Assembly (NCBI GenBank): GCA_035995545.1
Contig: DASYKI010000001.1
Coordinates: 902-64,901, forward strand
Length of the DNA stretch: 64,000 bases
Direction: 5' to 3'
DNA from: Candidatus Dormiibacterota bacterium
Lineage (GTDB): Bacteria; Chloroflexota; Dormibacteria; Aeolococcales; Aeolococcaceae
The position numbers were made by a program, and so were the translations under genes. Within the stretch, counting starts at the first letter, position 1. Every line of letters begins with the position of its first letter. This document shows positions 22,595-46,191 of the stretch, one piece after another. The notes under the pieces are model-generated. The model was not told the DNA's origin and made no database searches. It saw only the letters and a program-made list of their open reading frames with translations.

Positions 22595-22786
22595 CGCGCC
22601 AGTGGGCCTCAGCGAAGGAGTCAGTTGGCGGACCATTCTGCTGTACCCAGGACAGGACGGGAACCGCGGGTTGCCGCGGGCCATGCTGATGAGGCGCGCC
22701 TGGAAGCTCGGGGCTGAGCCCCCACGCTCGACTTGCCTCGCCCTATGCAGTGGCTGGACGACGTAGGTTAGTCCAACTAGACTACC

Positions 22787-27705: not shown

Positions 27706-28082
27706 GCAACGTCCTCCTTGAGCGTGTTGACGGTCTGCTTCTGGGCTTGCACGGCGGCGCGGATGCGCAGTGCGGCGAGGCCGCCGAGCAGCAGGGCGAC
27801 GAGGAGAAACCCTGCTCCCGCAAGGGCCCACGACCACCACACGTCACCGAAGTGCTTGGGTAGCGCGGCGAAGGCGAGCACGGTGCCGATGAGCAGCAGC
27901 GGCAGCGCCAGCGTGATCAGCACCACCGCCACGATGCCGCGCTTCAGCGTCTCCTTGAGGCCGACCTTGGCGAGCTCGATCTCCATGCGCACCAGGCGCG
28001 CCGCGTCGTCGGCGATCTGCCGGCCGATGTCGGCGAGCGATTCCTCGTCGCGGTGCGGACGTTGGGGCTGCGCGGCTGCCAT
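27663..28082 (-). CDS. phage-holin-family (Holin-X-like) membrane protein
   Basis: Two transmembrane helices with a charged N-terminus; this is the typical actinobacterial DUF3618 / holin-X gene neighbourhood. Confidence 0.6.
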   Translation of the reverse strand: MAAAQPQRPHRDEESLADIGRQIADDAARLVRMEIELAKVGLKETLKRGIVAVVLITLALPLLLIGTVLAFAALPKHFGDVWWSWALAGAGFLLVALLLGGLAALRIRAAVQAQKQTVNTLKEDVAWVKQLTKRDTKSS

Positions 28083-28099
28083 GCGTGTCCCCCGGTCTC

Positions 28100-28507
28100 T
28101 CAGACGTCGAGCTGCGAGACGTCGATGTCGCGCAGGTTGGCGGGCGCCTCGACGCCGGCCTGCTGCAACAGCTTGAGCAGCTGCAGCACGTAGCGCACGC
28201 CGTTGAGGTTGACCCCATGGTTGCGCGTGAGGTTCTGGATCGTCTGCAGCTTGTGGATGTCGCGCTGCGAGAAACGGCGCCGGTTGGTCGAGGTGCGCTG
28301 CGGCACGACCAGCCCCATGTTCTCGTACATCATCAGCGTGCGAGGATGCGTCTCCAGGATCTCGGAGGCGACGCTGATGGTGTAGATCGGCTTGTCGAGC
28401 GAGAGGTTCAGCTCCCGCGGCTGGCGGTCATTCCGATCCTGTCGCTCGGCGCGGCGTGCGGGCTCCTCCCCGTCACCCTGGCCGCGTCCTCCTACTCTTT
28501 CAGCCAC
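28100..28507 (-). CDS. MerR-family HspR-like transcriptional regulator (paralogue 1)
   Basis: LDKPIYTISVASEILETHPRTLMMYENMGLVVPQRTSTNRRRFSQRDIHKLQTIQNLTRNHGVNLNGVRYV matches the HspR HTH. Confidence 0.75.
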   Translation of the reverse strand: MAERVGGRGQGDGEEPARRAERQDRNDRQPRELNLSLDKPIYTISVASEILETHPRTLMMYENMGLVVPQRTSTNRRRFSQRDIHKLQTIQNLTRNHGVNLNGVRYVLQLLKLLQQAGVEAPANLRDIDVSQLDV

Positions 28508-28905
28508 TCGCCGATGCCTTCGGAGAGTGAGCTCGGTGTGGTCTGTGCCTTGATGAGGAACTCGTGGGCGCCGAGCTTGAGGCCGCGGTCCACCAGCTCC
28601 TTCTCGCCGTAGTTGCTCAGCATGATCACCGGGATGGCCGCGGTGTCGTCGTTCTGGCGCAGGGCCTGGAGCACCTCGAAGCCGTCCTTCTTGGGCAGGC
28701 GGATGTCGAGGAAGATGATGTCCGGCTTGAGCTCGGTGGCCCGGGTGATGCCTTCCTCACCGTCGACGGCGACGTTGACCCGGTAGCCGTCCAGCTCCAG
28801 CTTCATGCGGTACATCTCCAGCACCGCAGGATCGTCCTCGATGAGGAGGACGTCGATGACCTCGTCGTCCACAGTAGCCTCCGCGTTGGCCGGATCGGCG
28901 ATCAC
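28492..28905 (-). CDS. stand-alone response-regulator receiver (CheY-like) protein
   Basis: VLLIEDDPAVLEMYRMKLELDGYRV...IIFLDIRLPKKDGFEVLQALR...IPVIMLSNY contains the phosphoacceptor Asp. Confidence 0.85.
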   Translation of the reverse strand: MIADPANAEATVDDEVIDVLLIEDDPAVLEMYRMKLELDGYRVNVAVDGEEGITRATELKPDIIFLDIRLPKKDGFEVLQALRQNDDTAAIPVIMLSNYGEKELVDRGLKLGAHEFLIKAQTTPSSLSEGIGEWLKE

Positions 28906-29081
28906 AAGAGAACCTCGGCAGTATAGCGGCGCGGTCGCGCCGTGCGGAACAATTCCATGCCAGCGCCGTGTGCAAGAAACCTGCTAGCGGAGTGTACGTC
29001 GAACGCTCCAGCGGGCGCACCATCTTGTGGTCACGAGCCGGCCCGGCGGGGCCGCGGCAGGCCGCTCAGCGGCCGGGGCGC

Positions 29082-29483
29082 TCAGAGCCGGACGTGGGTG
29101 ACGTCGATGTCGTCGAGGAAGTCCGGCCGGGCCACCCGGTTCGCGTCCATGAGCTGGAGGCACTGGATCACGTACTTGGCCCCGTTGAGGTTGAGGCCGT
29201 GGTGGCGGGTGAGGCGCTGGATCGCCTGGAGGGTCAGGATGTCGCGCTGGGAGTAGCGGCGGCGGTTGGTCGCAGTGCGATGAGGCACCACCAGGCCGAG
29301 GTGCTCGTACATCATCAGCGTGCGCGGATGGGTCTCGAGGATCTCGGCCGCAACGCTGATCGTGTAGATCGGCTTGTCCAGCCCGACCTGAGCGGAGGCC
29401 GGGAGCGGTGCGGTGGCTGTCACGAAGGCCTCCTTGCCCGCCGCCGGTGGTTCGTCGTCTGTAGTGGCGCTGTCGGTGGACAT
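29082..29483 (-). CDS. MerR-family HspR-like transcriptional regulator (paralogue 2)
   Basis: LDKPIYTISVAAEILETHPRTLMMYEHLGLVVPHRTATNRRRYSQRDILTLQAIQRLTRHHGLNLNGAKYV is near-identical to the core of paralogue 1. Confidence 0.75.
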   Translation of the reverse strand: MSTDSATTDDEPPAAGKEAFVTATAPLPASAQVGLDKPIYTISVAAEILETHPRTLMMYEHLGLVVPHRTATNRRRYSQRDILTLQAIQRLTRHHGLNLNGAKYVIQCLQLMDANRVARPDFLDDIDVTHVRL

Positions 29484-34250: not shown

Positions 34251-35129
34251 GTGGACAATGCGGGCGTGGCGACGACCCCGCAGCGCGTCCGCGAGCACCC
34301 CGTCCAGGCGGGCGATCTGCGCCTGTCGGTGCGCGACCACGAGGGCACTGAGCCCGCCGTCGTCGGCCTGCACGGTCTCGCCTCCAACGCGCGGTGGTGG
34401 GACCTGGTGGCCTCGCACCTGGCTCCCCGGCGCCTCGTCTCCATCGACCAGCGTGGACACGGGCTCAGCGACAAGCCGGACGCCGGATACGACTTCGACA
34501 GCGTCACCGCTGACGCGCGTTCCGTTATTCGCGCGTTGGCGTTGGGACCGGTCGTCGCGGCCGGGCATTCGTGGGGCGCGTCGGTCGCGCTGTGGTGGGC
34601 GGCTGCCGACCCCGAGGGTGTGCGGGCGGTGGTGTGCGTCGACGGCGGCATCGGCGACCTGCGCGGCTTCTTCGGCGCCAGCTGGGACGTCGCCGAGAAG
34701 GCGATGCGACCGCCGCGGCTCGACGGCATCACGGCGTCGCGTTTGCATGGCTGGGTTGACGCGTCGGGACTCGCCGGCGACGGCGACGTCGCCGAGGCGG
34801 TGCGCATCCTCTCCGGCAACTTCGAGGAGGTCGCACCGGGACAGCTGCAGCCGCGACTGCACGTCGACCGGCACATGCAGATCGCGCGCGAGCTGTATCA
34901 CCTCGACACGCCGTCACTGCTGGCGCGCGTGACTCAGCCGGTGCTGCTCGTCGTCGCGGTAAACGATCAGACGCGCGCGGTACGGCAGAGTGCCGCGGAC
35001 GAAGCACTGAGCCTGCTGCCGCGCGGCAGCGAGGCGGTGCTCGTCGACGGGATCCACGACCTGCCCGTGCAGCGGCCGGCGGAGGTTGCTGCGGCGATGA
35101 CGGCGTTCTTTGCGCGCGCGGGGTTGTAG
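34251..35129 (+). CDS. alpha/beta-fold hydrolase
   Basis: HGLASNARWW, the nucleophile elbow GHSWGASVA, and the HG oxyanion motif. Confidence 0.85.
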   Translation: MDNAGVATTPQRVREHPVQAGDLRLSVRDHEGTEPAVVGLHGLASNARWWDLVASHLAPRRLVSIDQRGHGLSDKPDAGYDFDSVTADARSVIRALALGPVVAAGHSWGASVALWWAAADPEGVRAVVCVDGGIGDLRGFFGASWDVAEKAMRPPRLDGITASRLHGWVDASGLAGDGDVAEAVRILSGNFEEVAPGQLQPRLHVDRHMQIARELYHLDTPSLLARVTQPVLLVVAVNDQTRAVRQSAADEALSLLPRGSEAVLVDGIHDLPVQRPAEVAAAMTAFFARAGL

Positions 35130-35210
35130 CGAGCCGACTCGCGGCGCGACATCTGACTCGAAAACCACGATCGCAACGCGCGTAGCACGACATCGATGCG
35201 ACGTTTGTGC

Positions 35211-35238
35211 GACCGCAACTTGCGGACCGCAACCGCAG
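35211..35238. promoter_or_regulatory. gaccgcaac triple repeat with perfect palindrome CCGCAACTTGCGG upstream of the tad operon (candidate operator)
   Basis: gaccgcaacttgcggaccgcaaccgcag lies in a relatively AT-richer 260-bp intergenic region before cpaE. Confidence 0.3.
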
Positions 35239-35389
35239 TTTGCTAGCGTTGGCGCAGAAACACACACAGGTGTACGGGCTGGGGTTTGCGCCCCACTTCC
35301 GCCGGCACATGGCGGGCACTGGCGCGCGGTGACGTCGCTTTCACGATTGTCGCTGCACGCCCTCTTGCAGGAAGGGAGTTGTCACCCGG

Positions 35390-36889
35390 ATGGGCGGAAT
35401 CCATTTCACCGACGGCATCGATCGGCCCGACACCATCGCGTTCGGGCTCGATGCACCGCGGCTCGTCGCCGTCGTCGTCGCGGCGCTGTCGGGATACGCG
35501 GTCATGCAGGCGCCGCTGCCATTCGCGCTGCGTGTCGCCGTCGCGGTGCTGGTGGCGGCGACCGGCGCCCTGCTCGGCTGGGGTCGATACGCCGGCCGAC
35601 CGCTGCTGACCTGGGCGTGGCTGGCGCTGCGCTTTGCACTCTCGCCGCAGACGGGCGGTGGCCCGCCGGTTGCTCGCGATGCGGCGCCGGTGCATGTCGT
35701 GCAGCCGGCGGCCGAACCGGAGGCGCTCGTCGCTGAGACAGCGCCCACGGTGGTCGAGGACACGGTGCCGGCGTGGGCGAAGTGGCTCGACTTCGACGCG
35801 TCGGCGCCGGAGGACGCCGCGCCGCCGCCGGTGCCCGGGCCTGCTGCCGCGGTGCTGCCCGAAGGGACGGTGGAGACGTCGCGCGATGTGCCGCTCGTGG
35901 TCGTCGCGGACCTGCGCGAACCACGCGCCGACCCTGACGAGACACTGCACGCCGACGAACAACCGGACGAGCTCCCTCATGCCGACGTCGTGCATCTCCC
36001 GTTCGCGCGCGCCGGCGTCACCGCTGCGTCGCACGCGATGCCCGTCGCCGATGCGCGCGACGCGCCACCGCCCGTCTTCGTCGGTGCACCGCGGCGGGTC
36101 ACCTTCTTCTCGCTCAACGGCGGATCCGGACGCACCACGCTGGCCACCGAGGTCGCCTGCATCCTTGCCGCCCGCGGACGGCATCTCGCCGCGGACGGCA
36201 CGGTGCGTCCGCTGCACGTCACCCTGCTCGACCTCGACCTGCGCAGCGCGACCGTCGCGGTGCGCCTCGGCATCGCCCATCCCACCCTCGGCGACTACCT
36301 GGGCAGCGGCGCCGATCCCGTGCGCCTGGAGAGCTGCATGGTGCGCCACCCCAGCGGAGTGCGCGCGCTGCTCGGCCCGCCCAAACCGCTGGCCGGCGGA
36401 GCCGGCGCCCTGGAACCCGCGCGCGTCGCCGAGATCGTGCACCGGCTGGAACGCGACGGCGCCCAGTTCGTCGTCGTCGACGTCAGCGCCGACCTCGGCG
36501 CGGTGACCACCTGGGTGCTCAGCGCCATGCACGACATCTTCGTCGTCATCACGCCGACCGCGAGCGGAGTGCAGGACGCGTACCGGACCACCGAGGCGCT
36601 GCGTCGCCTGGGACTGGGCCACAAGCTGCGCTACGTCGTCAACCGCGCCCGCAGCGCGCCCGACCTCGGCGAGGTGATGGGCGACCTCGGCGGCCGCGTC
36701 GCCGCCGTCGTGCCCTACGACCCGGCCATCGAGGAGGCGGAGAACCACCACAACATCGCCGCGCTCGCCGGCACCGGTCCCGCGGCACGCGCCCTGCACG
36801 ACCTGGCGGCGCTGCTCTATCCGTCGCTCGCACCCGCGGCGCGTCGCACCCGCGCCCACCGGCTGCCGTGGAGGCGCCGGGTTGGCTGA
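35390..36889 (+). CDS. cpaE: CpaE/TadZ-like pilus-assembly protein (membrane-anchored; ParA/MinD fold with degenerate Walker A)
   Basis: Two N-terminal transmembrane helices, a long Pro/Ala/Asp-rich linker, then RRVTFFSLNGGSGRTTLATEV. This takes the place of the KGGVGKTT found in ParA/MinD and CpaE, and both lysines are replaced. There is an 8-nt overlap with cpaF. Confidence 0.7.
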   Translation: MGGIHFTDGIDRPDTIAFGLDAPRLVAVVVAALSGYAVMQAPLPFALRVAVAVLVAATGALLGWGRYAGRPLLTWAWLALRFALSPQTGGGPPVARDAAPVHVVQPAAEPEALVAETAPTVVEDTVPAWAKWLDFDASAPEDAAPPPVPGPAAAVLPEGTVETSRDVPLVVVADLREPRADPDETLHADEQPDELPHADVVHLPFARAGVTAASHAMPVADARDAPPPVFVGAPRRVTFFSLNGGSGRTTLATEVACILAARGRHLAADGTVRPLHVTLLDLDLRSATVAVRLGIAHPTLGDYLGSGADPVRLESCMVRHPSGVRALLGPPKPLAGGAGALEPARVAEIVHRLERDGAQFVVVDVSADLGAVTTWVLSAMHDIFVVITPTASGVQDAYRTTEALRRLGLGHKLRYVVNRARSAPDLGEVMGDLGGRVAAVVPYDPAIEEAENHHNIAALAGTGPAARALHDLAALLYPSLAPAARRTRAHRLPWRRRVG

Positions 36890-38171
36890 CACACTCACCG
36901 CTCCCGAGGATCTGCTGCGCAGCATCCGCGCGCGACTCACCCTCGAGCTCGACCCTGCCGTCGCCAACCCCTTCTCCACCGTGCCCGGTCGCCGCGGACT
37001 GATCCGCGACGCCATCCGCCGTGCCCTCGCCGACGTCGAGGCCGCGCTGCCGCACGATGCGCTGGTCGACGACCTCTATGACGAGCTGGTCGGCCTCGGT
37101 CCGCTGCAGCCGCTGATGTCCGACCCGGAGATCACCGACATCCTGGTCAACCGCCACGACGAGGTGTTCGTGGAACGGCAGGGGCGCCTGGAGATCACGG
37201 CGACGCGCTTTCGCGACCAGGCGCACCTGGAGCAGGTGATCGCCAAGATCGTCGCCCTGGTGGGACGGGAGATCAGCGTCGACAAGCCGCTGGTCGACGC
37301 GCGCATGGTCGACGGCAGCCGCGCCAACGCCGTATATGCACCGGTCGGCGGCCCGACGCTGTGCATCCGCAAATTCAACCGGCTGCGTCTCGCCTTGCTG
37401 CCGGATCCCGCGCGTCCGGACGGCGACTGGGTCTCGCGCGGCGGCATGAGCGCGGAGATGGCCCGCTTCCTCGACGCCATGGCCCGCGCCCGGGCCACCA
37501 TCCTCGTCGCCGGTGCGACCGGTGCGGGCAAGAGCACCCTGCTGCGCTCGATCGTCGACGCCTTCCCGCTGCACGAGCGGGTCATCACCATCGAGGACAC
37601 CGCCGAGCTGGAGCTCGAGAATCCGCACTGGGTGCGGCTGGAGTGCGTGCATCATCACGAACTGGGCGGCCAGGACAGCAGCGCACGCCGCCTCGATGTG
37701 GCCGACCTTGTCCAGAACGCGCTGCGCATGCGGCCCGACCGGCTCATCATCGGCGAGATCCGCAACAGCCGGGAGGCGTACCACACCCTCGAAGCGCTCA
37801 ACACCGGGCACGACGGCAGCGCCACCACCATCCACGCCAGCAGCGCGGCCGACGCGCTCTCCCGGCTGGAGCTGCTGGTGGGACGCAGCTTCGGCCAGCT
37901 CACGCCGCGCGAGATCCGCGGCTACATCGCGCGGGTGATCGACGTCGTCGCCGTCGTCTCGCGGCTTCCCGGCGGGCGCCGCTGCGTCGTCGAGATCTGC
38001 GAGCTCGCCGGCAGCGACGGTGCGGAGTACGACCTGCGGCCGGTGTTCTCCACCGACGTCGAACACGACGGGGACGAGGCGACGCCGCTGTTCCGCACCG
38101 CGTCGGGGTACCGGCCCGCGCGGCGCCTGGCGCGCAAGCTGGCCCTGGAGGGACTGCTGTGGATCTCCTGA
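36882..38171 (+). CDS. cpaF: CpaF/TadA secretion ATPase (type II/IV secretion, VirB11-like)
   Basis: Walker A ILVAGATGAGKSTLL, Walker B RPDRLIIGEIR and the His box TLEALNTGHDGSATTIHASS. Confidence 0.9.
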   Translation: MADTLTAPEDLLRSIRARLTLELDPAVANPFSTVPGRRGLIRDAIRRALADVEAALPHDALVDDLYDELVGLGPLQPLMSDPEITDILVNRHDEVFVERQGRLEITATRFRDQAHLEQVIAKIVALVGREISVDKPLVDARMVDGSRANAVYAPVGGPTLCIRKFNRLRLALLPDPARPDGDWVSRGGMSAEMARFLDAMARARATILVAGATGAGKSTLLRSIVDAFPLHERVITIEDTAELELENPHWVRLECVHHHELGGQDSSARRLDVADLVQNALRMRPDRLIIGEIRNSREAYHTLEALNTGHDGSATTIHASSAADALSRLELLVGRSFGQLTPREIRGYIARVIDVVAVVSRLPGGRRCVVEICELAGSDGAEYDLRPVFSTDVEHDGDEATPLFRTASGYRPARRLARKLALEGLLWIS

Positions 38172-39028
38172 TCGCCACCGTCGTGGCGGCGGCGGTGCTG
38201 CTGCTGGGGATCGCCACCGCACCGCGTCGTGTCGAGGGCCCGCGCGCGGCGAGCGGCTCGGTGTTTGCGCGCGCCGTGGAGCGGCAGCGCATGCGGTTGC
38301 GCGCGGCGCGGCTCAGCGTCGATGCGCGGCGCTTCACCCTGCTCTGCGTGGCGACGCCGCCGCTGCTGGTCATCGCCGGACTGGTGATCGGCTCGCCGGT
38401 GGTCGCCGTGCTCGCGGGCGCCGGTGGCTTCGCCCTGCCCCGGCTCTACGTCGACGCGCTGGTGCGCGCGCAGCGACGCCGCACCGAAGCCGAGGCGCCG
38501 CGCATGCTCCAGGTGATCCTGGCCAGCCTGGCCTCGGGCAGCACGTACCTCGAAGCGCTGCAGGAGGCGCGCGCCCGCGCCGGCGATCGCTGGCTCCGTG
38601 ACGACCTCGACCACGTCATCTCCGAGTTTCACCTCGGCGTCCCGCTGGAGCGCTCGATCGCCGAGGTGCGAACCGCGACGGCGGGCCGCAACCTCTCGCT
38701 GATCTGGGACAACCTGGCCATCTGCATCGCCAACCGCATCCCCGCGGCGCGTGCCAAGGGGCTGTTCGTGGAGCTGTCGTCGACGGTGCAGTTCAACGTG
38801 CAGGTGCAGCAGGAGGTGCGAGCCCGCACCTCGGGCCAGCGCGCCCAGATCTGGCTGCTCGCCCTCATCGTCCCCGGACTCTTCCTCTACCTGCGCATCC
38901 TCGACGGCAGCCTCTTCGCGGTCCTCGACGCGACCACGCTGGGACGTTGGGTGCTGTTCCCCGTCGCAGTCGCGCTGGAGGTGCTCGGCGTGGTGCTGAG
39001 CTTCCGCCTGTCCAGGGTGGAGCTGTAG
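38159..39028 (+). CDS. tadB: TadB-like inner-membrane platform protein (T2SSF family)
   Basis: A GTG start overlaps the cpaF stop. A polytopic protein with a conserved T2SSF-like cytoplasmic domain. Confidence 0.75.
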   Translation: MDLLIATVVAAAVLLLGIATAPRRVEGPRAASGSVFARAVERQRMRLRAARLSVDARRFTLLCVATPPLLVIAGLVIGSPVVAVLAGAGGFALPRLYVDALVRAQRRRTEAEAPRMLQVILASLASGSTYLEALQEARARAGDRWLRDDLDHVISEFHLGVPLERSIAEVRTATAGRNLSLIWDNLAICIANRIPAARAKGLFVELSSTVQFNVQVQQEVRARTSGQRAQIWLLALIVPGLFLYLRILDGSLFAVLDATTLGRWVLFPVAVALEVLGVVLSFRLSRVEL

Positions 39029-39030
39029 CC

Positions 39031-39933
39031 GTGCTGGCATCGCTGCTCGCCGCCTGCAGCGTCCTCTGTCTCGCCGCAGCCATGCCGCGGCGTCGCCGGC
39101 GCACGCTGCCCGTCGAGCTGGCCCGCCTCAGCACCATGGACACGCGCGAGATCGCGCTGCATCGCAACGCACAGCGGCCACCGTGGGAACGGCTGCTGCA
39201 GCCGGCCGTGGCCGTGGTCGCAGCGCGGCTGCGTCCGTCCTGGGCCGGCGTCAGCGAGGAGGACCTGCGGCGCGCCGGCATCGACGTCGAGCGCTTCGGC
39301 GTCGGCGAGCTGCTCACCGTCAAGGTGCTCGCCGGCATGCTCGGCGCGGCGCTGGCCCTGCTGATGGCGGTGGCGGCGCCCGGTGCGCTGATCCTGCTGC
39401 CCGCGCTCGCCTTCGGCGGCTTCGTCGCACCCAGTGTGCTGGTGACGCGACGCCGGGCGGCGCGTCAGGCGCGCATGCTGCGCGAGCTTCCCGACGTCAT
39501 CAGCCTGGTCAAGGCCTTCGTCGGAGCGGGCATCCCGCTGGAGCAGGCGCTGCACCTGATCAGCGCCCAGCTCGGCAGCGGCGCCGAGCCCAACCTGCTG
39601 GCGACCGAGGTGCGCCGTGCACTCAGCGACTACGGCCTGGGCATGTCCATCGAGGATGCCCTGCAGGCGATGGCGGCGCGCACCGGTCTCGCCGAGCTGG
39701 AGATGCTGGCCGCCGCGCTGGCGCAGGCCAAGCGGCAGGGCGCGGGCATGGAGCGCGTGCTGCGCGACCAGGAGACGGTGGCACGCATGCAGCAGCGCAA
39801 CCGCGCCCTCGCCGCCGCGTCGCGGGTGAGCACCCGGCTGGTCGGCGTGCTCGTCGCCGTGTACCTGCCGGAGTTCCTGGTGCTGATCCTGGCACCGCTG
39901 TTCTACGGAATCTTCCTGCGCGCCTTCGGCTAG
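39031..39933 (+). CDS. tadC: TadC-like inner-membrane platform protein (T2SSF family)
   Basis: A GTG lies 2 nt after the tadB stop. It is a T2SSF-like paralogue (LPDVISLVKAFVGAGIPLEQAL). Confidence 0.75.
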   Translation: MLASLLAACSVLCLAAAMPRRRRRTLPVELARLSTMDTREIALHRNAQRPPWERLLQPAVAVVAARLRPSWAGVSEEDLRRAGIDVERFGVGELLTVKVLAGMLGAALALLMAVAAPGALILLPALAFGGFVAPSVLVTRRRAARQARMLRELPDVISLVKAFVGAGIPLEQALHLISAQLGSGAEPNLLATEVRRALSDYGLGMSIEDALQAMAARTGLAELEMLAAALAQAKRQGAGMERVLRDQETVARMQQRNRALAAASRVSTRLVGVLVAVYLPEFLVLILAPLFYGIFLRAFG

Positions 39934-39960
39934 CAGGCCACCACCGACGGAGAGAGCGCG

Positions 39961-40107
39961 ATGAGACAACGGCAGAAGGGCCAGTCGACACTGGAGTGGG
40001 TGATCGGCGCGGCGATCATCCTCAGCACCCTGGCCGCCGCCGTGCTGGCATGGAACCAGGGCCTGGCGCACAAGATCGGCGACCTGGTGCAGCAGGTCAC
40101 CCACTGA
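39961..40107 (+). CDS. flp: Flp-family type IVb/c prepilin (48 aa)
   Basis: MRQRQKGQSTLEWVIGAAIILSTLAAAVLAWN has the Flp motif G/xxxxE[YW] followed by a hydrophobic helix. There is an SD GGAGAG upstream. It is absent from the ORF track because it is under 60 aa. Confidence 0.6.
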   Translation: MRQRQKGQSTLEWVIGAAIILSTLAAAVLAWNQGLAHKIGDLVQQVTH

Positions 40108-40115
40108 GCGTCGTG

Positions 40116-40538
40116 ATGGCTTCTGCTGTGCGCGGTCGAGCACCGCGCGTGCACCGCCGCCAGCGCGGACAGGAGACGCTGCAGGCGATCCTGGTCGTGT
40201 CGCTGGTGCTGCTGCCCATGCTGGTCGGCGTGCTGACATTCGGCACGCTGGTGCACGCGTCGATCGCGACGCAGACCGCGGCGGCCGCCGGTGCGCGCGC
40301 GGCGGGCGTCGCCGGAGAGTTCGGGCCGGACCAGCTCGACCGGGTCACCGGGGAGCTGCGCTCGAATGGGATCGATCCCAACGCATGTGTGATCGGCAGC
40401 AGCTCGGGGACGGTGGCGCTCGACCAGCCGATCAGCGTCACGGTGCAATGCCCCGAGCACGTCGGCATCCCGTTTCTGTTCGAGCGCGATGTGCAGCTGA
40501 CCTCGACGGTGGTTGGACGCGGTGAGGTCAACCGATGA
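40116..40538 (+). CDS. tadE: TadE-like pseudopilin/pilus assembly protein
   Basis: RRQRGQETLQAILVVSLVLLPMLVGVLTFGTLVHA matches the TadE N-terminal motif. Confidence 0.65.
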   Translation: MASAVRGRAPRVHRRQRGQETLQAILVVSLVLLPMLVGVLTFGTLVHASIATQTAAAAGARAAGVAGEFGPDQLDRVTGELRSNGIDPNACVIGSSSGTVALDQPISVTVQCPEHVGIPFLFERDVQLTSTVVGRGEVNR

Positions 40539-41056
40539 TGCGCCTGCACGTCGGCGGGCATCGCCTTCGGCTTCGGCGGCAGCGCGGCTCGTCGGTGCTC
40601 TACGTCGTCGTGCTGAGCCCGGTGCTGCTGCTCGGCATCGCCTTGGCCACCGAGGCGGGCGGGCTGCAGATGCAGAGGGAGCGGGTGCGCAGCGCGGTGG
40701 ACCAGTCCGTGGTGGTCGCCGCCGCTGCGGCGTCGCACGCGGGCAGCGCCGTCGGGCTGGACGCGCGACGTGCCGACGCGGTGCTGCGTGAGGTGCTCGG
40801 CGCCAACCTGGCGCCGCTGGCGTCCGCATTCGCGGGCACGACTGCCGCGGCGCTCGCCCGCGACGCCGACGTCGCGGTGGTGGCCAACGTGCCGGCCGCC
40901 GATCCCTTCAACCCGGGCGCGGTGTTGCGCAGGCCGACCATCGAGGTTCGCGTTCGCGTCCCGCTGCACACCGGGTTGTTCGCCGCCGCGGGGCTGCCCT
41001 CCAGCGTGACTGCGACGCTGGTGTCCGCAGCGGCGCTGCGCGAGACGGGCACATGA
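40535..41056 (+). CDS. tadG: TadE/TadG-like pilus assembly protein
   Basis: RRQRGSSVLYVVVLSPVLLLGIALATEAGGL is a Tad_N/TadE-G-like N-terminus. There is a 4-nt overlap with tadE. Confidence 0.6.
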   Translation: MMRLHVGGHRLRLRRQRGSSVLYVVVLSPVLLLGIALATEAGGLQMQRERVRSAVDQSVVVAAAAASHAGSAVGLDARRADAVLREVLGANLAPLASAFAGTTAAALARDADVAVVANVPAADPFNPGAVLRRPTIEVRVRVPLHTGLFAAAGLPSSVTATLVSAAALRETGT

Positions 41057-41084
41057 GAACGCAGCAGACACGGAGCCACACCGC

Positions 41085-41783
41085 ATGAGACGCACCGCCT
41101 ACCTCGTCGCCTTCCTCCTCCTCGCGCTGGCCGCGGGGCTGCTCACCCTGCGCGCCCAGCGCACGGTGGACGTGCTGGTCGCCGCGCACGACGTGCGGGC
41201 GGGACAGCAGATCGCGGCCGGCGACGTCGAGATCCGCCGCGTCCACGAGGACAGCGTTCCCGGCGATGCGCTGGCCAGTCCCGATGCCGTGGTCGGGCAG
41301 TTCGCGGCGTGGCCGTTCACCGGGGGCGAGCCGGTGCTGGGACGCATGGTGCGGCACGCGCGCTCGGGTGTGGCGCTCACCGCCGCGATCACCGTGCCCG
41401 ACGGGTATCGCGCCATCGCGGTGCCGGTGCAACCCTCCGGTGCGGTGGGCGGGATGCTCGCGCCCGGCGACCATGTCGACGTCTACGCCACACCACTGGC
41501 GGGACATCAGAGCACGTCGGCGGCGTCGCGCGCCGGTGGCAGCACCGCTGCGCCGGTTGCCGGCGACGGCACCGTGGTCCTGGGCCGGGACCTGCTCGTG
41601 CTGCAGCTGCGGTCGGACCAGGGGCAGCCGCTCGACGCCTCCGGAGATCAGTCGGTGCATGGGCTCAACTTCGGTGTCGGCAAGCTCGGCAGTGTGGTCA
41701 TCGCGGTGCCGGCCGATGACGTTGCCCGGTATGCGTCGGCGGCGGTGGGAGACAGCATCTACCTCGCGCTCAGCGTGGGATGA
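41085..41783 (+). CDS. cpaB: CpaB (Flp pilus assembly protein; SAF + RcpC domains)
   Basis: A signal-anchor, then VAAHDVRAGQQIAAGDV (SAF) and the RcpC C-terminal domain. Confidence 0.8.
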   Translation: MRRTAYLVAFLLLALAAGLLTLRAQRTVDVLVAAHDVRAGQQIAAGDVEIRRVHEDSVPGDALASPDAVVGQFAAWPFTGGEPVLGRMVRHARSGVALTAAITVPDGYRAIAVPVQPSGAVGGMLAPGDHVDVYATPLAGHQSTSAASRAGGSTAAPVAGDGTVVLGRDLLVLQLRSDQGQPLDASGDQSVHGLNFGVGKLGSVVIAVPADDVARYASAAVGDSIYLALSVG

Positions 41784-41850
41784 CGCGCATGCTTCGGCCG
41801 GCGCCCACGAAGTGTCCGCGCATGCACGGTGCCGCCAGGTGCCGCGGCCA

Positions 41851-44034
41851 GTGAGCGCGGCGCGCATCGTCTCCCCGGCGCTCGACGCCGTGCGTCTCGA
41901 CGGCGCGCACGTGCACCGCGCCGACGGCTGCGTCGCCACGCTTGTCGAGTCCGGCGACGTGGACGTTGCGGCGCTCGACATCTCGCGTCGCGCCATGGCG
42001 GTTGCCGCCTTCGCGCGCCTGTGCCGCACACTGGACTGCCCGCTGCAGATCGTCGTGCAGGTGCGCCGATGGATCGAGGACGACACCAACCGCGCCGGCA
42101 GCGCCGCGGGCGTCACGGACGGCACGACACTGGTGCACACGCTGCGCAGCGCGACGGCCGCGCATCGCCGCCGCGCTCTGGCAGCGCGCCCGGCATTCCG
42201 CCGCAAGATCCTCTTCGTTCCCACCGCGGGCACGGTCGACGACGCAGATCGAGCGACGCGCCTCATCCTCGACACACTCTCCACCGCAGGCGTCGGTGGG
42301 CGGGTTCTCCGCGACGCAGAGCTGCGCGACCGCATCCGGGAGGCGTGGGGGGGCGACCACAGCGCCGCAGACTCAATCACCACATCCCTGCATCCCCCAC
42401 CGTGGCAGCGCCACCGTACCCACGCCGCGCTGGGCACCCTGCTGGCCCGCGCCGTCGTGCTGCGACGACTGCCCGGCGTCGCCGTCGAGCCCGGCTGGCT
42501 CGCGCCCCTGCTCGACGTGCGAGCCGAGTGCGACGTCAGCATCCACGTCGCCCCCGTCGGCGTCGCCGACGCCATGTCCGCCATCGGCAGGCGTCTGCGC
42601 ACGATGCGCGCCGACCAGCTCGTCGAGATCGACCGCGAGTCCTTCGGCGACGCGGGGCTGGAGGTCGGCGTCGACAGCGCCCTCGACCTGCGCGGGCGCC
42701 TGGCGCGCAACGAGGGCCGCGCCGCGCGCATGTCGCTCATCGCCGTGGCGCGCGCCACTGACGCAGCCACGCTCGACCTCGCATCCGACGCGTTGCGCAG
42801 CGCCGCGCTGGCGACCCTCGCCGGCTGCGAGCCCGCACACCTGCAACATCTCGAGGCCGCCGCGTCGGCCTGGCCGCTCGGCCAAGACCTGCTCGGGGCA
42901 GCCAAGCTGGTCGACACCACGGCGCTGGCCACCTGCCTGCCCTGGACAAGCAGCACCTGCGACGACCCCGACGGGTACGCCATCGGCACCGCGTCGGCCA
43001 CCGGCACGCCGGTGCGCGTCGCGCCCTTCGACACCACCCAGCACGGCAACGCCAACATCGCGGTCATTGCCGCGTCGGGACAGGGCAAGAGCTACGCCAT
43101 CGGGGCGCTGGTCCTCGAAGCGGCGGCGCGCGGCGTGGGCAGCGTGATCATCGACCCCGAGGGCGAGTACGAGCGCATCGTGCGAGCCCTCGACGGCGAC
43201 TACCTGCGCCTCGCGCCCGGGTGCGCCACGGCGCTCAATGTCTTCGACGCCGGCGGCGAGGAGTCCCAGGCCGAAACGGTCGCGGCCGTGGTCGAGCTGG
43301 TTGCCGTGCTCTGCGGCGGCGGGCTCGACGAGGTCGAGCGCGCCCTTGTCGATGCCGCCGCCACGGATGCCATCGCAAGCGCACGGCACCACGGCCGCAC
43401 CGCGGTCCTCGGCGACTGCATCGACGCACTGGAACAGCGAGCGCCACGCCCTGCGCTGGTCCTGCGCAGGTTCTGCAGCGGACCGCTCGGCGAGCTGTTC
43501 AACCGTCCCACCACCGCGAAGCTCTCCGCGCACGTCGTCGGCGTCTCGCTGCGCGACCTGGGCACCGAGCTCGTCCCCGCCGCAACCCTGATCGTCGCCG
43601 AGTGGCTGTGGTCGCTGGTGCGGCGCGACCGGCGCGAACGCCACGTGGTCTTCGACGAGGTCGGCCTGCTCTGCGCGCACGCACCGCTGCGCACGCTGCT
43701 GGTGCAGCTCGCACGCCGCTGCCGCAAGTACGGCGCCTCGCTGGTGGTGGCGACCCAGAACGCCGGCGACCTCCTCTCCACCCCCGAGGGCACGGTGGTG
43801 GCCACCAACCCCGCCATCGTGCTGCTGGGCGGCCATCGCGGCGCCGAGACCGCGCGCATGGAGGAGGCCTTCGCGCTCACCATCGCGCAGCGCCGCCACC
43901 TCGAATCGGCGGCACGTGGCGACTTCCTACTGCTCGCCGGTGCGCGGCGGCTGCCCATCCACATCGAGGTGTCACCGCTGCACCACGCGCTGCTCACCGG
44001 CCAGCCCATGCTGCGCACCCGATCACCGGGATGA
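41851..44034 (+). CDS. VirB4/TrbE/TraC-family (AAA_10) ATPase
   Basis: Walker A IAVIAASGQGKSY, Walker B HVVFDEVGLL, and the family signature CRKYGASLVVATQNAGDL (RK...ATQ). The N-terminus is like CagE/TrbE. The start is uncertain (GTG at 41851 or earlier); the gene immediately follows cpaB. Confidence 0.65.
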   Translation: MSAARIVSPALDAVRLDGAHVHRADGCVATLVESGDVDVAALDISRRAMAVAAFARLCRTLDCPLQIVVQVRRWIEDDTNRAGSAAGVTDGTTLVHTLRSATAAHRRRALAARPAFRRKILFVPTAGTVDDADRATRLILDTLSTAGVGGRVLRDAELRDRIREAWGGDHSAADSITTSLHPPPWQRHRTHAALGTLLARAVVLRRLPGVAVEPGWLAPLLDVRAECDVSIHVAPVGVADAMSAIGRRLRTMRADQLVEIDRESFGDAGLEVGVDSALDLRGRLARNEGRAARMSLIAVARATDAATLDLASDALRSAALATLAGCEPAHLQHLEAAASAWPLGQDLLGAAKLVDTTALATCLPWTSSTCDDPDGYAIGTASATGTPVRVAPFDTTQHGNANIAVIAASGQGKSYAIGALVLEAAARGVGSVIIDPEGEYERIVRALDGDYLRLAPGCATALNVFDAGGEESQAETVAAVVELVAVLCGGGLDEVERALVDAAATDAIASARHHGRTAVLGDCIDALEQRAPRPALVLRRFCSGPLGELFNRPTTAKLSAHVVGVSLRDLGTELVPAATLIVAEWLWSLVRRDRRERHVVFDEVGLLCAHAPLRTLLVQLARRCRKYGASLVVATQNAGDLLSTPEGTVVATNPAIVLLGGHRGAETARMEEAFALTIAQRRHLESAARGDFLLLAGARRLPIHIEVSPLHHALLTGQPMLRTRSPG

Positions 44035-44038
44035 GAGG

Positions 44039-44590
44039 ATGCGCGCCATGCACGAGACGCCCTCCGACCTCGCCGCCCTTCAGGACCTGCTCGACCGCAG
44101 CGCGGCCCAGGCCGGTGTTCACATGCAGCGCATCGTCACGCCGGAACGACGTCTCAGCGCGCAGGAGCTGAGTCAGCGCCTCACCGGCATGTCGCTGCTG
44201 GCGCTGGCGACGGTCACGGCAGACGGCCGCCCCATCGTCGGCCCGGTGGACGGCATCTTCTACCGCGGCGCCTTCCACTTCGGGTCCGCGCCGGACTCGG
44301 TGCGGTTCCGCCACATCGGCCGGCGCCCGCAGGTCAGCGCCACCCATCTTCCCGGTGAGCATCTCGCGGTGACGGTGCACGGTCGCGCCACGCCGATCGA
44401 CATCCGCAGTCCCGAGCACTCCGGCTTTCGCCAGACGCTGCTCGACATCTACGTGCCCCGCTACGGCGCCGACTGGGAGACGTCGTTCCTCGACGCCGGG
44501 CCGATGTACGCGCGCATCGACGCCGACCGCATGTTCACATTCCACATGGACGAGGACGCGCACGCGAGCGGCCAGGCAAGGGAGGACTGA
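44039..44590 (+). CDS. pyridoxamine 5'-phosphate oxidase-family (FMN/F420 split-barrel) protein
   Basis: A 183 aa protein with a PNPOx-like pattern (LLALATVTADGRPIVGPVDGIFYRGAFHFGS). It starts 5 nt after the stop of the upstream ATPase. Confidence 0.6.
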   Translation: MRAMHETPSDLAALQDLLDRSAAQAGVHMQRIVTPERRLSAQELSQRLTGMSLLALATVTADGRPIVGPVDGIFYRGAFHFGSAPDSVRFRHIGRRPQVSATHLPGEHLAVTVHGRATPIDIRSPEHSGFRQTLLDIYVPRYGADWETSFLDAGPMYARIDADRMFTFHMDEDAHASGQARED

Positions 44591-44596
44591 CACCGG

Positions 44597-44980
44597 ATGG
44601 CGATGCAGACGGACTTCACCGTGATCCTCGAGGACCGTCCCGGGAGCGCGGCGCTGGTGGGCCAGACCATGGGCCGCGCCGAGGTCAACATCGACGGGCT
44701 CAGCCTGTTCACCAGCGGCGGCGTCGCCATCCTGCACATCCTGGTCGCGCCGCAGGAGGTGGACAGGGCGCGCGAAGCCCTGCGCACGTCGGCGATCGAC
44801 CTGCACGGCGAACGTCCCGTCTGGGTGTCCCAGCTCGCCGACCGCCCCGGTGCGATGGGACAGCTGCTCCGCGTTCTGGCCGAGGCCGACGTCAACTGCG
44901 ACCTCCTCTACCTCGACGCCCACGGCCGCCTGGTGATCGGCGCCGAGGACATGGAGCAGGTCTCGCACCTGCTCAGCTGA
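44597..44980 (+). CDS. ACT-domain protein (tandem ACT)
   Basis: FTVILEDRPGSAALVGQTMGRAEVNIDGLSL ... VSQLADRPGAMGQLLRVLAEADVNCD. Confidence 0.7.
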   Translation: MAMQTDFTVILEDRPGSAALVGQTMGRAEVNIDGLSLFTSGGVAILHILVAPQEVDRAREALRTSAIDLHGERPVWVSQLADRPGAMGQLLRVLAEADVNCDLLYLDAHGRLVIGAEDMEQVSHLLS

Positions 44981-45009
44981 GCGGCGCGGCCCGCCGGCGG
45001 ACGCTCAGC
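44975..45009. terminator. GC-rich hairpin between convergent genes (candidate bidirectional terminator)
   Basis: ctgagcgg...(loop)...ccgctcag gives a stem of at least 8 bp spanning the stop codons of the ACT gene and the DUF421 gene. No U-tract follows, which is common in high-GC genomes. Confidence 0.3.
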
Positions 45010-45523
45010 GCTTGCGCAGGATGCGCACGCGGCGCCGCGACCGCTGCCTGGGGCGTCCGCCACCCTTGGGCACGACGCTGATGCTGCCGTCCGGTTCCAG
45101 CACCGCGAGCTTCACCTCGCTGATGTCGCCGACCCCGTGCTCGCGCAGCGCCGCCTCGATGTCGTCGTCGTCGAGGCCCTCGTTCTCGATCGCCGCGCGA
45201 ATCCATTCCCCGTCGCGGCCGATGACGGTGGGCTTCGCCTGCAGCAGGTCGCGAAACCACGGCACGCGCTCGCGTGCCAGTGACACCATCCGGTTGGTCA
45301 GCACCAGCGCCGCGATGACGATGAGGCCGCCGGTGAGCGAGTTGTCGGGACCGGTCATGGCCGGCTGCACCGCGTTGGCGACCAGGAGCACGACGACGAT
45401 GTCGAACAGCGTGAACTGTCCCACCTCGCGCTTGCCGAAGATGCGCAGCGCCACCAGCAACGCGAGGTAGATCACCATCGAGCGAACCACCAGCTCCCAC
45501 CAGGGAACGCCGAGGCTGAACAT
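45005..45523 (-). CDS. DUF421 (YetF-like) membrane protein
   Basis: The protein starts MFSLGVPWWELVVRSMVIYLALLVALRIFGKREVGQFTLFDIVVVLLVANAVQ. The C-terminal soluble domain is GRDGEWIRAAIENEGLDDDDIEAALREHGV. Confidence 0.7.
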   Translation of the reverse strand: MFSLGVPWWELVVRSMVIYLALLVALRIFGKREVGQFTLFDIVVVLLVANAVQPAMTGPDNSLTGGLIVIAALVLTNRMVSLARERVPWFRDLLQAKPTVIGRDGEWIRAAIENEGLDDDDIEAALREHGVGDISEVKLAVLEPDGSISVVPKGGGRPRQRSRRRVRILRKR

Positions 45524-45534
45524 GGTGTCGGCGA

Positions 45535-46191
45535 TCACACGTGCTCCAGTGCGATGCGCGCACCGAAGCCGATCAGCACCACGCCGGTGAGCCGCTCCAG
45601 CCGGCGCCGCACCGCGGGACGGCGCATCACCGAGCCCGCCCGGCTGACCACGACGGTGAGCAGCGACAGCCAGAGGATGCCCTCGACGGCGTGGATGGCG
45701 GCGAGCAGCACACTGACGCCGAGCACCGACGCGCCCGCGGGGATGAACTGCGGCAGCAGCGTCGCGTAGAAGACGCCGATCTTCGGGTTGAGCAGGTTGT
45801 TGAGGATCCCGGTGCGGAACGGCCTGCGCACCGCGCGGGCACGCGGCGGCAACTGACCCACCTCGCCGGAGCCGGCAGCCGGCTCGCCGGCGCGCGTGCG
45901 CGTCGCCAGCAACGCGCGAACACCGAGCCAGATCAGGTAGGCCGCACCGGCGAAGCGCAGCACGTCGTAGGCGACGCGCGACGCCGCGACGAGCGCAGAC
46001 ACACCCATCGCCGAGAGCAGCCCCCAGCTCACCAGCCCGCAGGCCACGCCCGCCGAGGTGCGCAGCCCGACGGAGCGCCCGCCGGCCACGGTGTTGCGGA
46101 TCACCAGGGCCATGTCGACGCCGGGGGTGATGGTCAGCAGCGCCGCCACCAGGACGAAGGCGACGATGGAGGCCCACATGCGGGACAGCAT
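45535..46191 (-). CDS. LysE/RhtB-family amino-acid exporter
   Basis: The protein starts MLSRMWASIVAFVLVAALLTITPGVDMALVIRNTVAGGR. A 6-TM LysE-type protein ending ...FGARIALEH. Confidence 0.8.
   Translation of the reverse strand: MLSRMWASIVAFVLVAALLTITPGVDMALVIRNTVAGGRSVGLRTSAGVACGLVSWGLLSAMGVSALVAASRVAYDVLRFAGAAYLIWLGVRALLATRTRAGEPAAGSGEVGQLPPRARAVRRPFRTGILNNLLNPKIGVFYATLLPQFIPAGASVLGVSVLLAAIHAVEGILWLSLLTVVVSRAGSVMRRPAVRRRLERLTGVVLIGFGARIALEHV

Follow-up and report, generated by a model that had tools for sequence, protein, structure and literature searches.

Why should an operon for a pilus end in the ATPase of a secretion system? Type IV secretion has VirB4 as its signature ATPase, and Tad pili have TadA/CpaF as their motor; the two machines are regarded as distinct families, save for a few chimeras on mobile elements for which a coupling has been no more than hypothesised. 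The locus considered herein lies within a 64,000 nt stretch of DNA (the window) from a Candidatus Dormiibacterota bacterium (assembly GCA_035995545.1, contig DASYKI010000001.1, positions 902 to 64,901). At positions 35390–44034 of this window, on the + strand, Pfam and NCBIfam scans reveal nine co-directional genes, termed g1–g9, which comprise a Tad/Flp type IVc pilus set with a gene for a VirB4-family ATPase at its end. The reading that we favour, with a probability of roughly 0.6, is that these nine genes form one conserved, chromosomal operon for a hybrid machine of Tad and type IV secretion system (T4SS) ancestry, in which two motors are tethered by the fusion protein encoded by g1. The coupling would in this case be written in the genes themselves, with the TadZ-position protein joined to a VirB3-like anchor, with VirB4 translationally linked to cpaB, and with a non-mobile locus that is inherited across a phylum.

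The last gene encodes a divergent VirB4-family ATPase

The final gene of the string (g9, 41851..44034, + strand) encodes a protein of 727 aa, and its GTG start at 41851 is supported by the N-termini of homologues as well as by a database protein, likewise of 727 aa, that is identical. In the product, a P-loop domain at the C-terminus follows a VirB4-type N-terminal domain, with Walker A at residues 407–414 and Walker B at residues 598–603. All three motifs that an initial annotation, made from the sequence alone, had singled out (ASGQGKSY, VVFDEVGLL and CRKYGASLVVATQNAGDL) are found in the translation, on columns that are invariant across 16 homologues; the invariant residues in this set are G410, G412, K413, D602, E603, R622–Y627 and T635–N637. 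The RxRK...TQ motifs that are conserved in the P-loop domain of the VirB4 family are likewise present and invariant. The best NCBIfam model is NF045971 conju_CD1110, which describes a Gram-positive VirB4-like family (8.8e-54, model positions 201–735 of 752), and further matches are to TraC-F (1.3e-27) and VirB4_CagE (1e-17). When a profile of the 16 homologues is compared with solved structures, only VirB4 proteins are matched, namely Thermoanaerobacter VirB4 (4AG5, 4.7e-31, with an alignment that covers the VirB4 C-terminal domain) and TrwK of R388 (1e-5). An AlphaFold2 model of the protein (pLDDT 80.7, pTM 0.80) has as its top Foldseek match full-length R388 TrwK/VirB4, over both domains and ~750 columns (E 5e-30, TM-score 0.71–0.73), with HerA far lower (E 2e-12, TM-score 0.35), as are DndH and TrwB.

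Profile searches, the sequences of solved structures and the full-length fold thus all rank VirB4 first, and the earlier assignment of the gene to this family, and not to HerA/FtsK, is upheld. On its sequence and predicted fold, g9 is a VirB4-family ATPase of a divergent branch. Its identity as the ATPase of a defence system was considered and dropped, as PADLOC returned weak and generic P-loop matches only (mad8 8e-16, HerA 3e-7); the HerA_antiphage model gives an E-value of 0.001, and none of the HerA defence partners Sir2, DUF4297 and NurA lies beside the gene. A VirB3-type partner is, on the other hand, present within the same operon, in the form of a PF12666 PrgI domain at the N-terminus of the g1 product.

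The first gene joins a PrgI/VirB3-like hairpin to a ParA/MinD domain

PrgI is the VirB3 equivalent of Gram-positive T4SSs, and TadZ/CpaE is the protein that organises the TadA motor; g1 (35390..36889, + strand) encodes, within a single polypeptide of 499 aa, a domain like the former and a ParA/MinD domain at the position of the latter. Residues 1–90 form a PrgI/VirB3-like two-helix membrane hairpin, residues 91–225 a variable linker rich in Pro, Ala and Asp, and residues 226–499 a NTPase domain of the ParA/MinD family. The initial annotation had described the gene as 'cpaE-like', which misses the N-terminal domain altogether. The Pfam model PF12666 (PrgI) matches residues 10–87, scoring 28.2 bits against a cutoff of 27 when the N-terminus is isolated, and is matched by every one of the 21 N-termini extracted from g1 homologues. 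The N-terminal signature reads FADGFD.PD..AFGL.A.QL...Y......PLP...LGW.R..GRP.L.W and is accompanied by two hydrophobic helices. A profile search of the PrgI domain against PDB sequences returned no meaningful relative.

With regard to the C-terminal domain, the closest solved structures are MinD (1hyq, 4.5e-20) and FleN. The NF047398 model for a 'KGGVGR-variant' AAA ATPase matches all 13 of the ParA domains from g1 and its homologues, and TIGR03815 (CpaE_hom_Actino) matches eight of the 13, weakly so (best 1.5e-9, below cutoff). The ParA/MinD domain is at the position canonical for TadZ/CpaE, whilst the N-terminal domain is PrgI and not receiver-like. The P-loop of the window protein reads GGSGRT (window 36100–36125), with the lysine replaced by arginine; amongst homologues (L001-L086) it is GG[ST]GR[ST] in nearly all, with GQT in the type II loci described below (L088:6534-7838), and GKT only in locus L076.

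In T4SSs, VirB4 is bound and anchored by the membrane protein VirB3, to which it is fused in some systems (PMC12102498, PMC4027160). With a PrgI/VirB3-like domain in the first gene and VirB4 in the last, T4SS-derived parts therefore bracket the Tad genes.

Layout of the operon and the pilus genes

As the window has a GC content of ~70 %, and lists of its open reading frames (ORFs) are crowded with shadow frames, genes were called from third-position GC, using a frame plot and a scoring caller. Coding signal between 35390 and 44980 is exclusively on the + strand, and ORFs together with the Pfam and NCBIfam matches establish that all nine genes predicted at the outset, the Tad/Flp set and the terminal VirB4-like ATPase, are present on that strand with the identities proposed. 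Intergenic distances from g1 to g9 are, in order, −8, −13, 2, 27, 5, −4, 28 and 67 nt. The tight packing previously described is accordingly confirmed (−13 to +28 nt), with a small correction to the cpaB–virB4 spacer, which had been put at 68 nt and is computed here as 67 nt. The sole sizeable gap before the gene string is a 260 nt intergenic spacer (35130..35389, + strand), which is presumed to hold the operon promoter. A promoter scan of this spacer found no sigma-70 consensus site, and no terminator-like sites occur in 34900–45600, the scan being uninformative in this GC-rich genome.

The motor and platform genes come first within the pilus set, and the order of CpaF, TadB and TadC is kept in relatives. 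The secretion ATPase CpaF/TadA (g2, 36882..38171, + strand; 429 aa) overlaps g1 by 8 nt and matches T2SSE at 2.7e-46, as well as the TadA-family model TIGR03819 (1.5e-68) and VirB11 (2.6e-58), both of these below their equivalog cutoffs; an identical protein is found in a Dormibacteraeota metagenome-assembled genome (MAG). The TadB-like platform protein (g3, 38159..39028, + strand; 289 aa), whose gene overlaps g2 by 13 nt, has four hydrophobic segments and displays 51–84 % identity to the syntenic gene in related loci, its match to T2SSF (1.1e-3) lying below the cutoff. For its TadC-like counterpart (g4, 39031..39933, + strand; 300 aa), which likewise contains transmembrane segments, the T2SSF match is above cutoff (7.5e-10).

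These are followed by a putative Flp-type prepilin of only 48 aa (g5, 39961..40107, + strand), to which the Flp Pfam model has no match, and which is recognised by its MRQRQKG/QSTLEWVIGAAIILSTL motif. The prepilin cleavage site reads MRQRQKG/QSTLEW, from which a mature pilin of 41 aa is predicted, and the motif GQSTLEWV[IV]GAAIIL is invariant in 14 loci drawn from both the type I and the type II family (see below). A TadE-like pseudopilin (g6, 40113..40538, + strand; 141 aa, alternative start 40149) has a leader, RGQETLQ, similar to that of the prepilin, and scores 22.9 bits with PF07811, which equals the cutoff. The TadE/TadG-like pseudopilin that comes next (g7, 40535..41056, + strand; 173 aa) overlaps g6 by 4 nt, reaches 21.4 bits with PF13400 against a cutoff of 22.3, and is syntenic in related loci. 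The last of the pilus genes encodes CpaB/RcpC (g8, 41085..41783, + strand; 232 aa), with an N-terminal transmembrane helix and SAF and RcpC domains (TIGR03177 2.9e-25, 89 bits against a cutoff of 71; PF16976 3.2e-13; PF08666 4.6e-9). No secretin is present, which is consistent with a Tad system of the monoderm type.

At the junction between cpaB and virB4, relatives usually display an overlap of stop and start codons, or a distance of no more than 8 nt. The corresponding ATGA persists in the window at 41780–41783, but is out of frame with virB4; it opens a 24-codon ORF that ends at ~41854, and the GTG start of virB4 lies 67 nt downstream. This arrangement may have arisen from a small indel that relocated the start, or may reflect a short upstream ORF.

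Conservation of the locus across Dormibacterota

How far this arrangement extends was assessed by a survey of one genome per GTDB species, which yielded 140 relatives; 80 of these, almost all Dormibacterota, were fetched with 10-kb flanks and searched by tblastn with the window proteins. Close VirB4 homologues likewise come from Candidatus Dormibacteraeota MAGs. The taxonomic framing of the locus as monoderm actinobacterial, an origin that its GC content of ~70 % had suggested, must therefore be abandoned, as the source names of the homologues are Dormibacterota and not Actinobacteria.

Loci of the first kind (type I) include that of the window, and 76 of them were informative for the presence or absence of Tad genes. 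The nine-gene order of the window is kept in seven type I loci, and is shared by L004 and L005, which were found independently; a further two loci, truncated by contig ends, fit the same order. L006 is partial, with TadE, TadG, CpaB and VirB4 accompanied by a reversed TadC fragment. By far the most common form, accounting for ~67 of the 76 informative loci, has the PrgI-ParA gene directly upstream of virB4, often with a 13-nt overlap, and no Tad genes within 10 kb. Most of these two-gene loci share the otsA-linked site. Both genes evolve under purifying selection, with ratios of non-synonymous to synonymous substitution (dN/dS) in two-gene loci of 0.09–0.19 for VirB4 and 0.04–0.36 for g1, and in Tad-bearing loci of 0.18–0.30 and 0.24–0.33, respectively.

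Several of the type I loci show irregularities of their own. In L043, L047, L052, L071, L072, L073, L079 and L084 the VirB4 match is split or starts far inside the protein, with a gap of 400–1000 nt after the PrgI-ParA gene; these come mostly from long-read 'MFD' MAGs, and are either sequencing frameshifts or real pseudogenes. In one genome of the two-gene type (L001:12410-16342), virB4 is directly followed by a gene for a class II ribonucleotide reductase, which contains an intein with a LAGLIDADG homing endonuclease.

A second family (type II) was reached by way of CpaF homologues that are ~66 % identical, and its VirB4 is 39 % identical to that of the window. Its layout is folC-folD-folB-HTH_3, PrgI-ParA, CpaF, TadB, TadC, Flp, TadE, TadG-like, sometimes a gene of 150 aa, a gene of ~420 aa, CpaB and VirB4. 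Hence the chromosomal site, folC-folD-folB, is unlike that of type I, whilst the nested Tad layout is found in all eight complete type II loci, metagenome loci included. Between the window and one such locus (L088), in which the PrgI domain scores 30 bits, identities fall in parallel across the set: 66 % for CpaF, 65 % for Flp, 51 % for TadB, 43 % for g1, 39 % for VirB4 and 34 % for CpaB. The additional gene of ~420 aa lies between the pseudopilins and cpaB (L088:12433-13689, L089:8068-9333, L090:8054-9331 and L095:7492-8820) and is absent from the window operon; with its signal-like N-terminus and weak match to a PKD domain, the product may be a pilus-associated surface or tip protein.

Beyond these, a search of 1.84 billion representatives detected 7297 relatives, 798 of them below 1e-30, and a metagenome scan seeded with intermediate relatives revealed a third family (type III). 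Here a stand-alone PrgI of 108 aa (31 bits) overlaps a VirB4 of 691 aa amid housekeeping genes, with no ParA domain, Tad genes or type IV coupling protein (T4CP). A large soil-metagenome set of such orphan pairs is provided by L096-L155 (e.g. L146:9648-12001), each with a PrgI of ~108 aa overlapping a VirB4-like protein of ~690 aa, and with no other T4SS, Tad or mobility genes among their housekeeping neighbours.

These data bear directly on the simplest objection to any functional reading, which is that an independent P-loop ATPase, HerA/FtsK-like or from a defence system, happens to follow cpaB. The 67-nt gap before g9 could be taken in this sense, as could the weak PADLOC matches and the presence of HerA and DndH folds lower in the Foldseek list. 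Matches to VirB4 are far stronger than those to HerA or defence proteins, however, and the adjacency of cpaB and virB4, whose conservation had been proposed as a check, recurs beyond chance in ~18 loci of two locus families, down to a VirB4 identity of 39 %, with a VirB3-like partner encoded in the same operon. Chance juxtaposition is thus largely refuted by the conservation data, and we regard it as exceedingly improbable.

The description of the locus as a Tad operon that ends in VirB4 needs to be recast in light of these comparisons: whilst the terminal virB4 is conserved, that description overlooks the PrgI partner at the other end, and the Tad genes are absent in most relatives. The conserved core is the VirB3–VirB4 pair, and the link with Tad is old but dispensable in cis.

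Evolutionary history of the pair and the pilus genes

A neighbour-joining (NJ) tree of VirB4, rooted with distant VirB4 proteins and assessed with 50 bootstrap replicates, places both type II, with its nested Tad genes, and type III outside the type I family (100 % bootstrap). In type I, two-gene lineages surround the Tad-bearing clade (100 %), which itself contains the partial L006 as well as L015, which has two genes only. The ParA domain is retained in all two-gene forms, at the position that is canonical for TadZ ahead of TadA. Given the placement of type II outside type I, the nested Tad-bearing clade and the retention of ParA in two-gene forms, the most economical history is one of capture followed by repeated deletion. 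It would have begun with an ancestral pair of PrgI and VirB4; a Tad operon would then have been captured between prgI and virB4, with the fusion of PrgI to TadZ; and repeated deletion of cpaF through cpaB would have left most Dormibacterota lineages with PrgI-ParA and VirB4. Insertion of the Tad cassette into an older PrgI-ParA/VirB4 pair, as a midpoint-rooted tree had indicated, was judged the less likely course once the type II loci were known and the tree was rooted with distant VirB4s, a preference tempered by the weakness of the deep nodes.

The same observations invite another explanation, in which PrgI-ParA and VirB4 constitute an autonomous two-component module, a minimal and domesticated remnant of a T4SS with a membrane function of its own, and the Tad cassette merely lies between its halves. 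The preponderance of type I loci in which the two genes are adjacent and Tad genes are lacking would then be readily accounted for, as would dN/dS values that are at least as low in two-gene loci as in Tad-bearing ones, the reduction of type III to stand-alone PrgI and VirB4 amid housekeeping genes, and the derived appearance of the Tad-bearing clade in the midpoint-rooted tree. It is more difficult to explain why ParA should be fused exactly at the canonical position of TadZ before TadA, why the identical nested order should occur in two locus families at different chromosomal sites with identities that fall in parallel, and why start and stop codons should overlap across the junctions. An unrelated cassette that split a translationally coupled pair would, moreover, be expected to be disruptive and short-lived, yet it is kept in every complete type II locus; clusters of tad and VirB4 genes also travel together on actinobacterial plasmids (PMC5696575). 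On balance, an autonomous module appears an unlikely explanation, albeit one with some substance, and a single operon for a hybrid machine remains the reading that we prefer.

Chromosomal setting and missing components

If the operon encodes a machine of the cell, and not of a passing element, its surroundings should be considered as well. Housekeeping genes flank the locus: otsB/otsA, a hydrolase, PPOX, ACT, an MprF-like gene, a methyltransferase and ribosomal protein L25. The otsA-linked flanks are syntenic across Dormibacterota, on contigs of up to 3.5 Mb, and the locus itself has no integrase, tRNA-flank signature, or shift in GC or composition. It is therefore chromosomal, non-mobile and vertically inherited. 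Doubt had been voiced as to whether the PNPOx-like (PPOX) and ACT genes downstream of virB4 belong to the operon, and this doubt was well placed: L004 keeps ACT only, whilst L005, L001, L003 and L006 have unrelated downstream genes. Both were rejected as members, since neither is a conserved neighbour of virB4.

Gene scans of the window covered ~55 of its 68 predicted genes, and amongst these, as had been stated beforehand, no relaxase, coupling protein, VirB6 or prepilin peptidase is encoded; nor was any integrase found there. The called genes of L001-L006, L087-L090 and L095 are likewise without relaxase or T4CP. In the operon and its flanks there is no Pfam match for VirB6/PrgH, VirB8/PrgL/TcpC or a cell-wall hydrolase, although divergent homologues may escape the sensitivity of hidden Markov models. 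The prepilin peptidase for Flp may be encoded elsewhere in the genome.

Such gaps could suggest that the cluster once belonged to an integrated conjugative element or plasmid with both a Tad pilus and a T4SS, and is now in decay, with VirB4 a leftover that has no role. The absence of T4CP, relaxase, VirB6 and VirB8 from the window would fit this, as would the split virB4 of the eight loci listed above; in addition, the nearest plasmid relatives (~31 % identity) belong to genuine conjugation clusters that also include T4CP, a cell-wall hydrolase and a relaxase-like gene, and in the case of Embleya with a Tad operon ~7 kb downstream. Decay is, however, at odds with purifying selection on both genes and with invariant catalytic motifs, as well as with the synteny at otsA or folCD across the phylum, on the long contigs mentioned, and with the lack of an integrase, tRNA-flank signature or composition shift. 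The split genes, for their part, sit in long-read MAGs and may be sequencing frameshifts. We therefore consider a remnant in decay highly unlikely.

A proposed machine and the points that weigh against it

What, then, might the nine genes do? As the hairpin binds VirB4 in T4SSs and the ParA domain sits at the TadZ position, one polypeptide would hold a VirB4 hexamer beside the CpaF–TadB/C platform. In the arrangement that we propose, the g1 product would insert in the membrane through its VirB3-like hairpin and recruit the VirB4 hexamer, whilst its ParA/MinD domain would engage the CpaF–TadB/C platform, as TadZ does; CpaB would surround the Flp fibre at the outer face of the membrane, and VirB4 would be a second motor, or a second activity, at the base of the pilus. 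Caulobacter CpaF alone drives both extension and retraction of the Tad pilus (PMC6920026), and hence pilus dynamics as such do not call for a second motor. The most likely role of VirB4 would be to carry a macromolecule through the membrane together with the action of the pilus, be it DNA, in uptake or exchange, or protein. Transfer of a macromolecule, possibly DNA, is a plausible function by analogy with ComB and Ced, which dispense with relaxase and T4CP, and with the chimera of type IV pilus and VirB4 that has been proposed for PAPI-1; classical conjugation is unlikely, as there is neither T4CP nor relaxase.

A number of points weigh against this reading, or against some part of it. The nearest matches of the g1 ParA domain are MinD, FleN and BcsQ; it fits the actinobacterial CpaE/Ssd model only weakly, and no similarity could be detected between it and the protein that occupies the TadZ position on an Embleya plasmid, so that it is by position only that g1 can be called a 'TadZ'. 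The replacement of the catalytic lysine of its P-loop by Arg or Gln suggests that this domain may serve as a scaffold rather than an ATPase; judged from its motifs, it is probably a nucleotide-binding scaffold with altered or no hydrolysis. VirB4 itself scores below all curated cutoffs for its family (conju_CD1110 183 vs 325 bits, VirB4_CagE 63.7 vs 643, TraC-F 96 vs 567), and for this reason is placed on a divergent branch and is no member of any named equivalog. The scanned genes of the window supply no VirB6- or VirB8-like channel component, no T4CP and no A24 prepilin peptidase, and the spacer between cpaB and virB4 is 67 nt where relatives show an overlap. In the tree, deep NJ nodes have a bootstrap support of only 10–50 %, so that it is uncertain how many gains and losses occurred, and in which direction. 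The majority of relatives lack Tad genes within 10 kb and yet keep PrgI-ParA and VirB4 under selection, from which it follows that a pilus encoded in cis is not obligatory for VirB4. Lastly, the function suggested for the operon is a hypothesis drawn from its genes, and is to be held with correspondingly less certainty.

That most relatives keep only PrgI-ParA and VirB4 places the essential activity in that pair, acting alone or together with pilus genes elsewhere. The cis-encoded pilus would accordingly seem to be an accessory retained by this lineage, with the core function residing in the VirB3–VirB4 pair. A bolder version of the hybrid machine can also be envisaged, namely an unrecognised chromosomal nanomachine of Dormibacterota and relatives, in which the VirB3–TadZ fusion docks a VirB4 hexamer on the Tad platform for relaxase- and T4CP-independent DNA uptake, or for exchange of macromolecules between cells, as a bacterial counterpart of archaeal Ced with a Flp filament, and with orphan PrgI and VirB4 as its minimal form. 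This we put forward as speculation that is rather doubtful in its entirety. If the two motors do share one platform, the locus would provide a tractable natural example of recombination between secretion and pilus machines, and would point to a route of horizontal gene transfer or of secretion in a soil phylum that is abundant but uncultured. The orphan chromosomal pairs of PrgI and VirB4, under purifying selection and with no other T4SS parts, also bear on the question of what VirB4 can do alone.

Other features of the window

Elsewhere in the window, a low-GC island at 13878–23406 (0.62–0.65 vs ~0.70–0.73 elsewhere) contains a type I restriction-modification system. Its HsdR (13878–17465, − strand) has a C-terminal Peptidase_S24 (LexA-like) domain, and a fusion of HsdR with S24 is unusual. 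Between hsdR and hsdS lie an unannotated gene of 216 aa and an AAA_21/AAA_15 (Abi/OLD-like) ATPase, followed by HsdM (20609–22918) and a PIN-domain gene (23029–23406). The island as a whole looks like a defence island. Upstream of otsA, at 27232–29483, is a conserved Dormibacterota block, found also in L001, L002 and L006, that consists of a 157-aa protein of unknown function, a Holin-X-like protein (PF07332), MerR, a stand-alone response regulator and a second MerR; it is adjoined by a class A penicillin-binding protein (24827–26992). Finally, there are two MEDS-domain sensory proteins (6501–7259 and 57860–58465), one of them fused to HTH_3, and the second of the two adjoins a histidine kinase (56688–57911).

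Comparison with known systems

No description of a fusion of VirB3 to TadZ, or of VirB4 inside a Tad operon, was found in the literature; known systems nevertheless share one or other side of the arrangement. The resemblance to monoderm Tad systems, such as those of Mycobacterium, Micrococcus and Bifidobacterium, concerns the gene set and its order (tadZ-tadA-tadB-tadC-flp-tadE-tadF), the tiny Flp pilin with its G/xxxxE[WY] motif, and the presence of CpaB without a secretin. In contrast to these, the protein at the TadZ position has an N-terminal VirB3-like hairpin where a receiver-like domain would be usual, the last gene encodes a VirB4 ATPase, and the locus has no prepilin peptidase.

From the side of secretion, the closest parallel is the prgI-prgJ pair of Gram-positive T4SSs (MPF-FATA/FA). 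The two-domain VirB4 fold and motifs of g9 are shared with this group, its best model being of the CD1110 type and its best solved relative Thermoanaerobacter VirB4, and a PF12666 PrgI is encoded along with VirB4, directly adjacent in most relatives. The Gram-positive module differs in having T4CP, relaxase, VirB6/PrgH, VirB8/PrgL/TcpC and a cell-wall hydrolase, none of which is seen here, whilst the present locus is chromosomal and vertically inherited, fuses PrgI to ParA/MinD, and scores below the curated cutoffs.

Relaxase- and T4CP-independent systems offer a further comparison. Archaeal Ced imports DNA using parts derived from conjugation (PMC9905601), and in Micrococcus luteus Tad pili are required for natural transformation (PMC4322843). 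The present locus is akin to Ced/Ted and to ComB of Helicobacter in combining, on the chromosome, a VirB4-like ATPase with a filament in the absence of relaxase and T4CP; Ced and ComB, however, use VirB2-like pilins and VirB6-like channel proteins, whilst the filament of the present operon is Flp, and VirB6 is not seen. NCBIfam models of Ced yield only a noise-level match of CedD to the operon (E 0.0064), with no VirB6- or VirB2-like genes, and the likeness is best taken as a functional analogy that lies behind the suggestion of DNA uptake.

Tad genes and monoderm-type VirB4 clusters do occur together on plasmids. The linear plasmids of C. acnes carry a tad locus beside VirB4, TcpC and FtsK-like genes, a linkage that the authors left open (PMC5696575), and the Embleya plasmid NZ_CP108778.1 has PrgI-family, VirB4-like, T4CP, replication-relaxation and NlpC/P60 genes, with a complete Tad operon ~7 kb downstream on the same strand. 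On this plasmid, from Embleya sp. NBC_00896 (L092:10272-13833, L093:1444-8070), a PrgI hairpin seems to be fused to a VirB4 N-terminal-like part in the 350-aa 'PrgI family protein', which is followed by an XF1762-family gene and the VirB4-like ATPase. As in the window, the two sets of genes on the C. acnes and Embleya plasmids cluster on the same strand; by contrast, they form distinct operons with several kb between them, and the plasmids have full conjugation functions, no PrgI-ParA fusion and a VirB4 that is ~31 % identical. Actinobacterial plasmids bearing tad and VirB4 are nonetheless a plausible evolutionary source of the combination.

The broadest precedent is given by chimeric systems, reviewed recently (PMC12857230, 2025), which include PAPI-1/ICE (a type IV pilus with VirB4 and VirD4), the IncI plasmid R64 (a T4SS with a type IVb pilus) and pRAW (a type VII secretion system with VirB4/VirD4). 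The window locus resembles PAPI-1, R64 and pRAW in that VirB4 is combined with a type IV filament machine of other ancestry and with few other T4SS parts. Those systems are carried on mobile elements, and have T4CP and relaxase for conjugation, neither of which is present here; conversely, in the locus described herein the pilus is of the Tad (IVc) and not the IVb kind, the genes are fixed in the chromosome, and the coupling is hard-wired by gene fusion.

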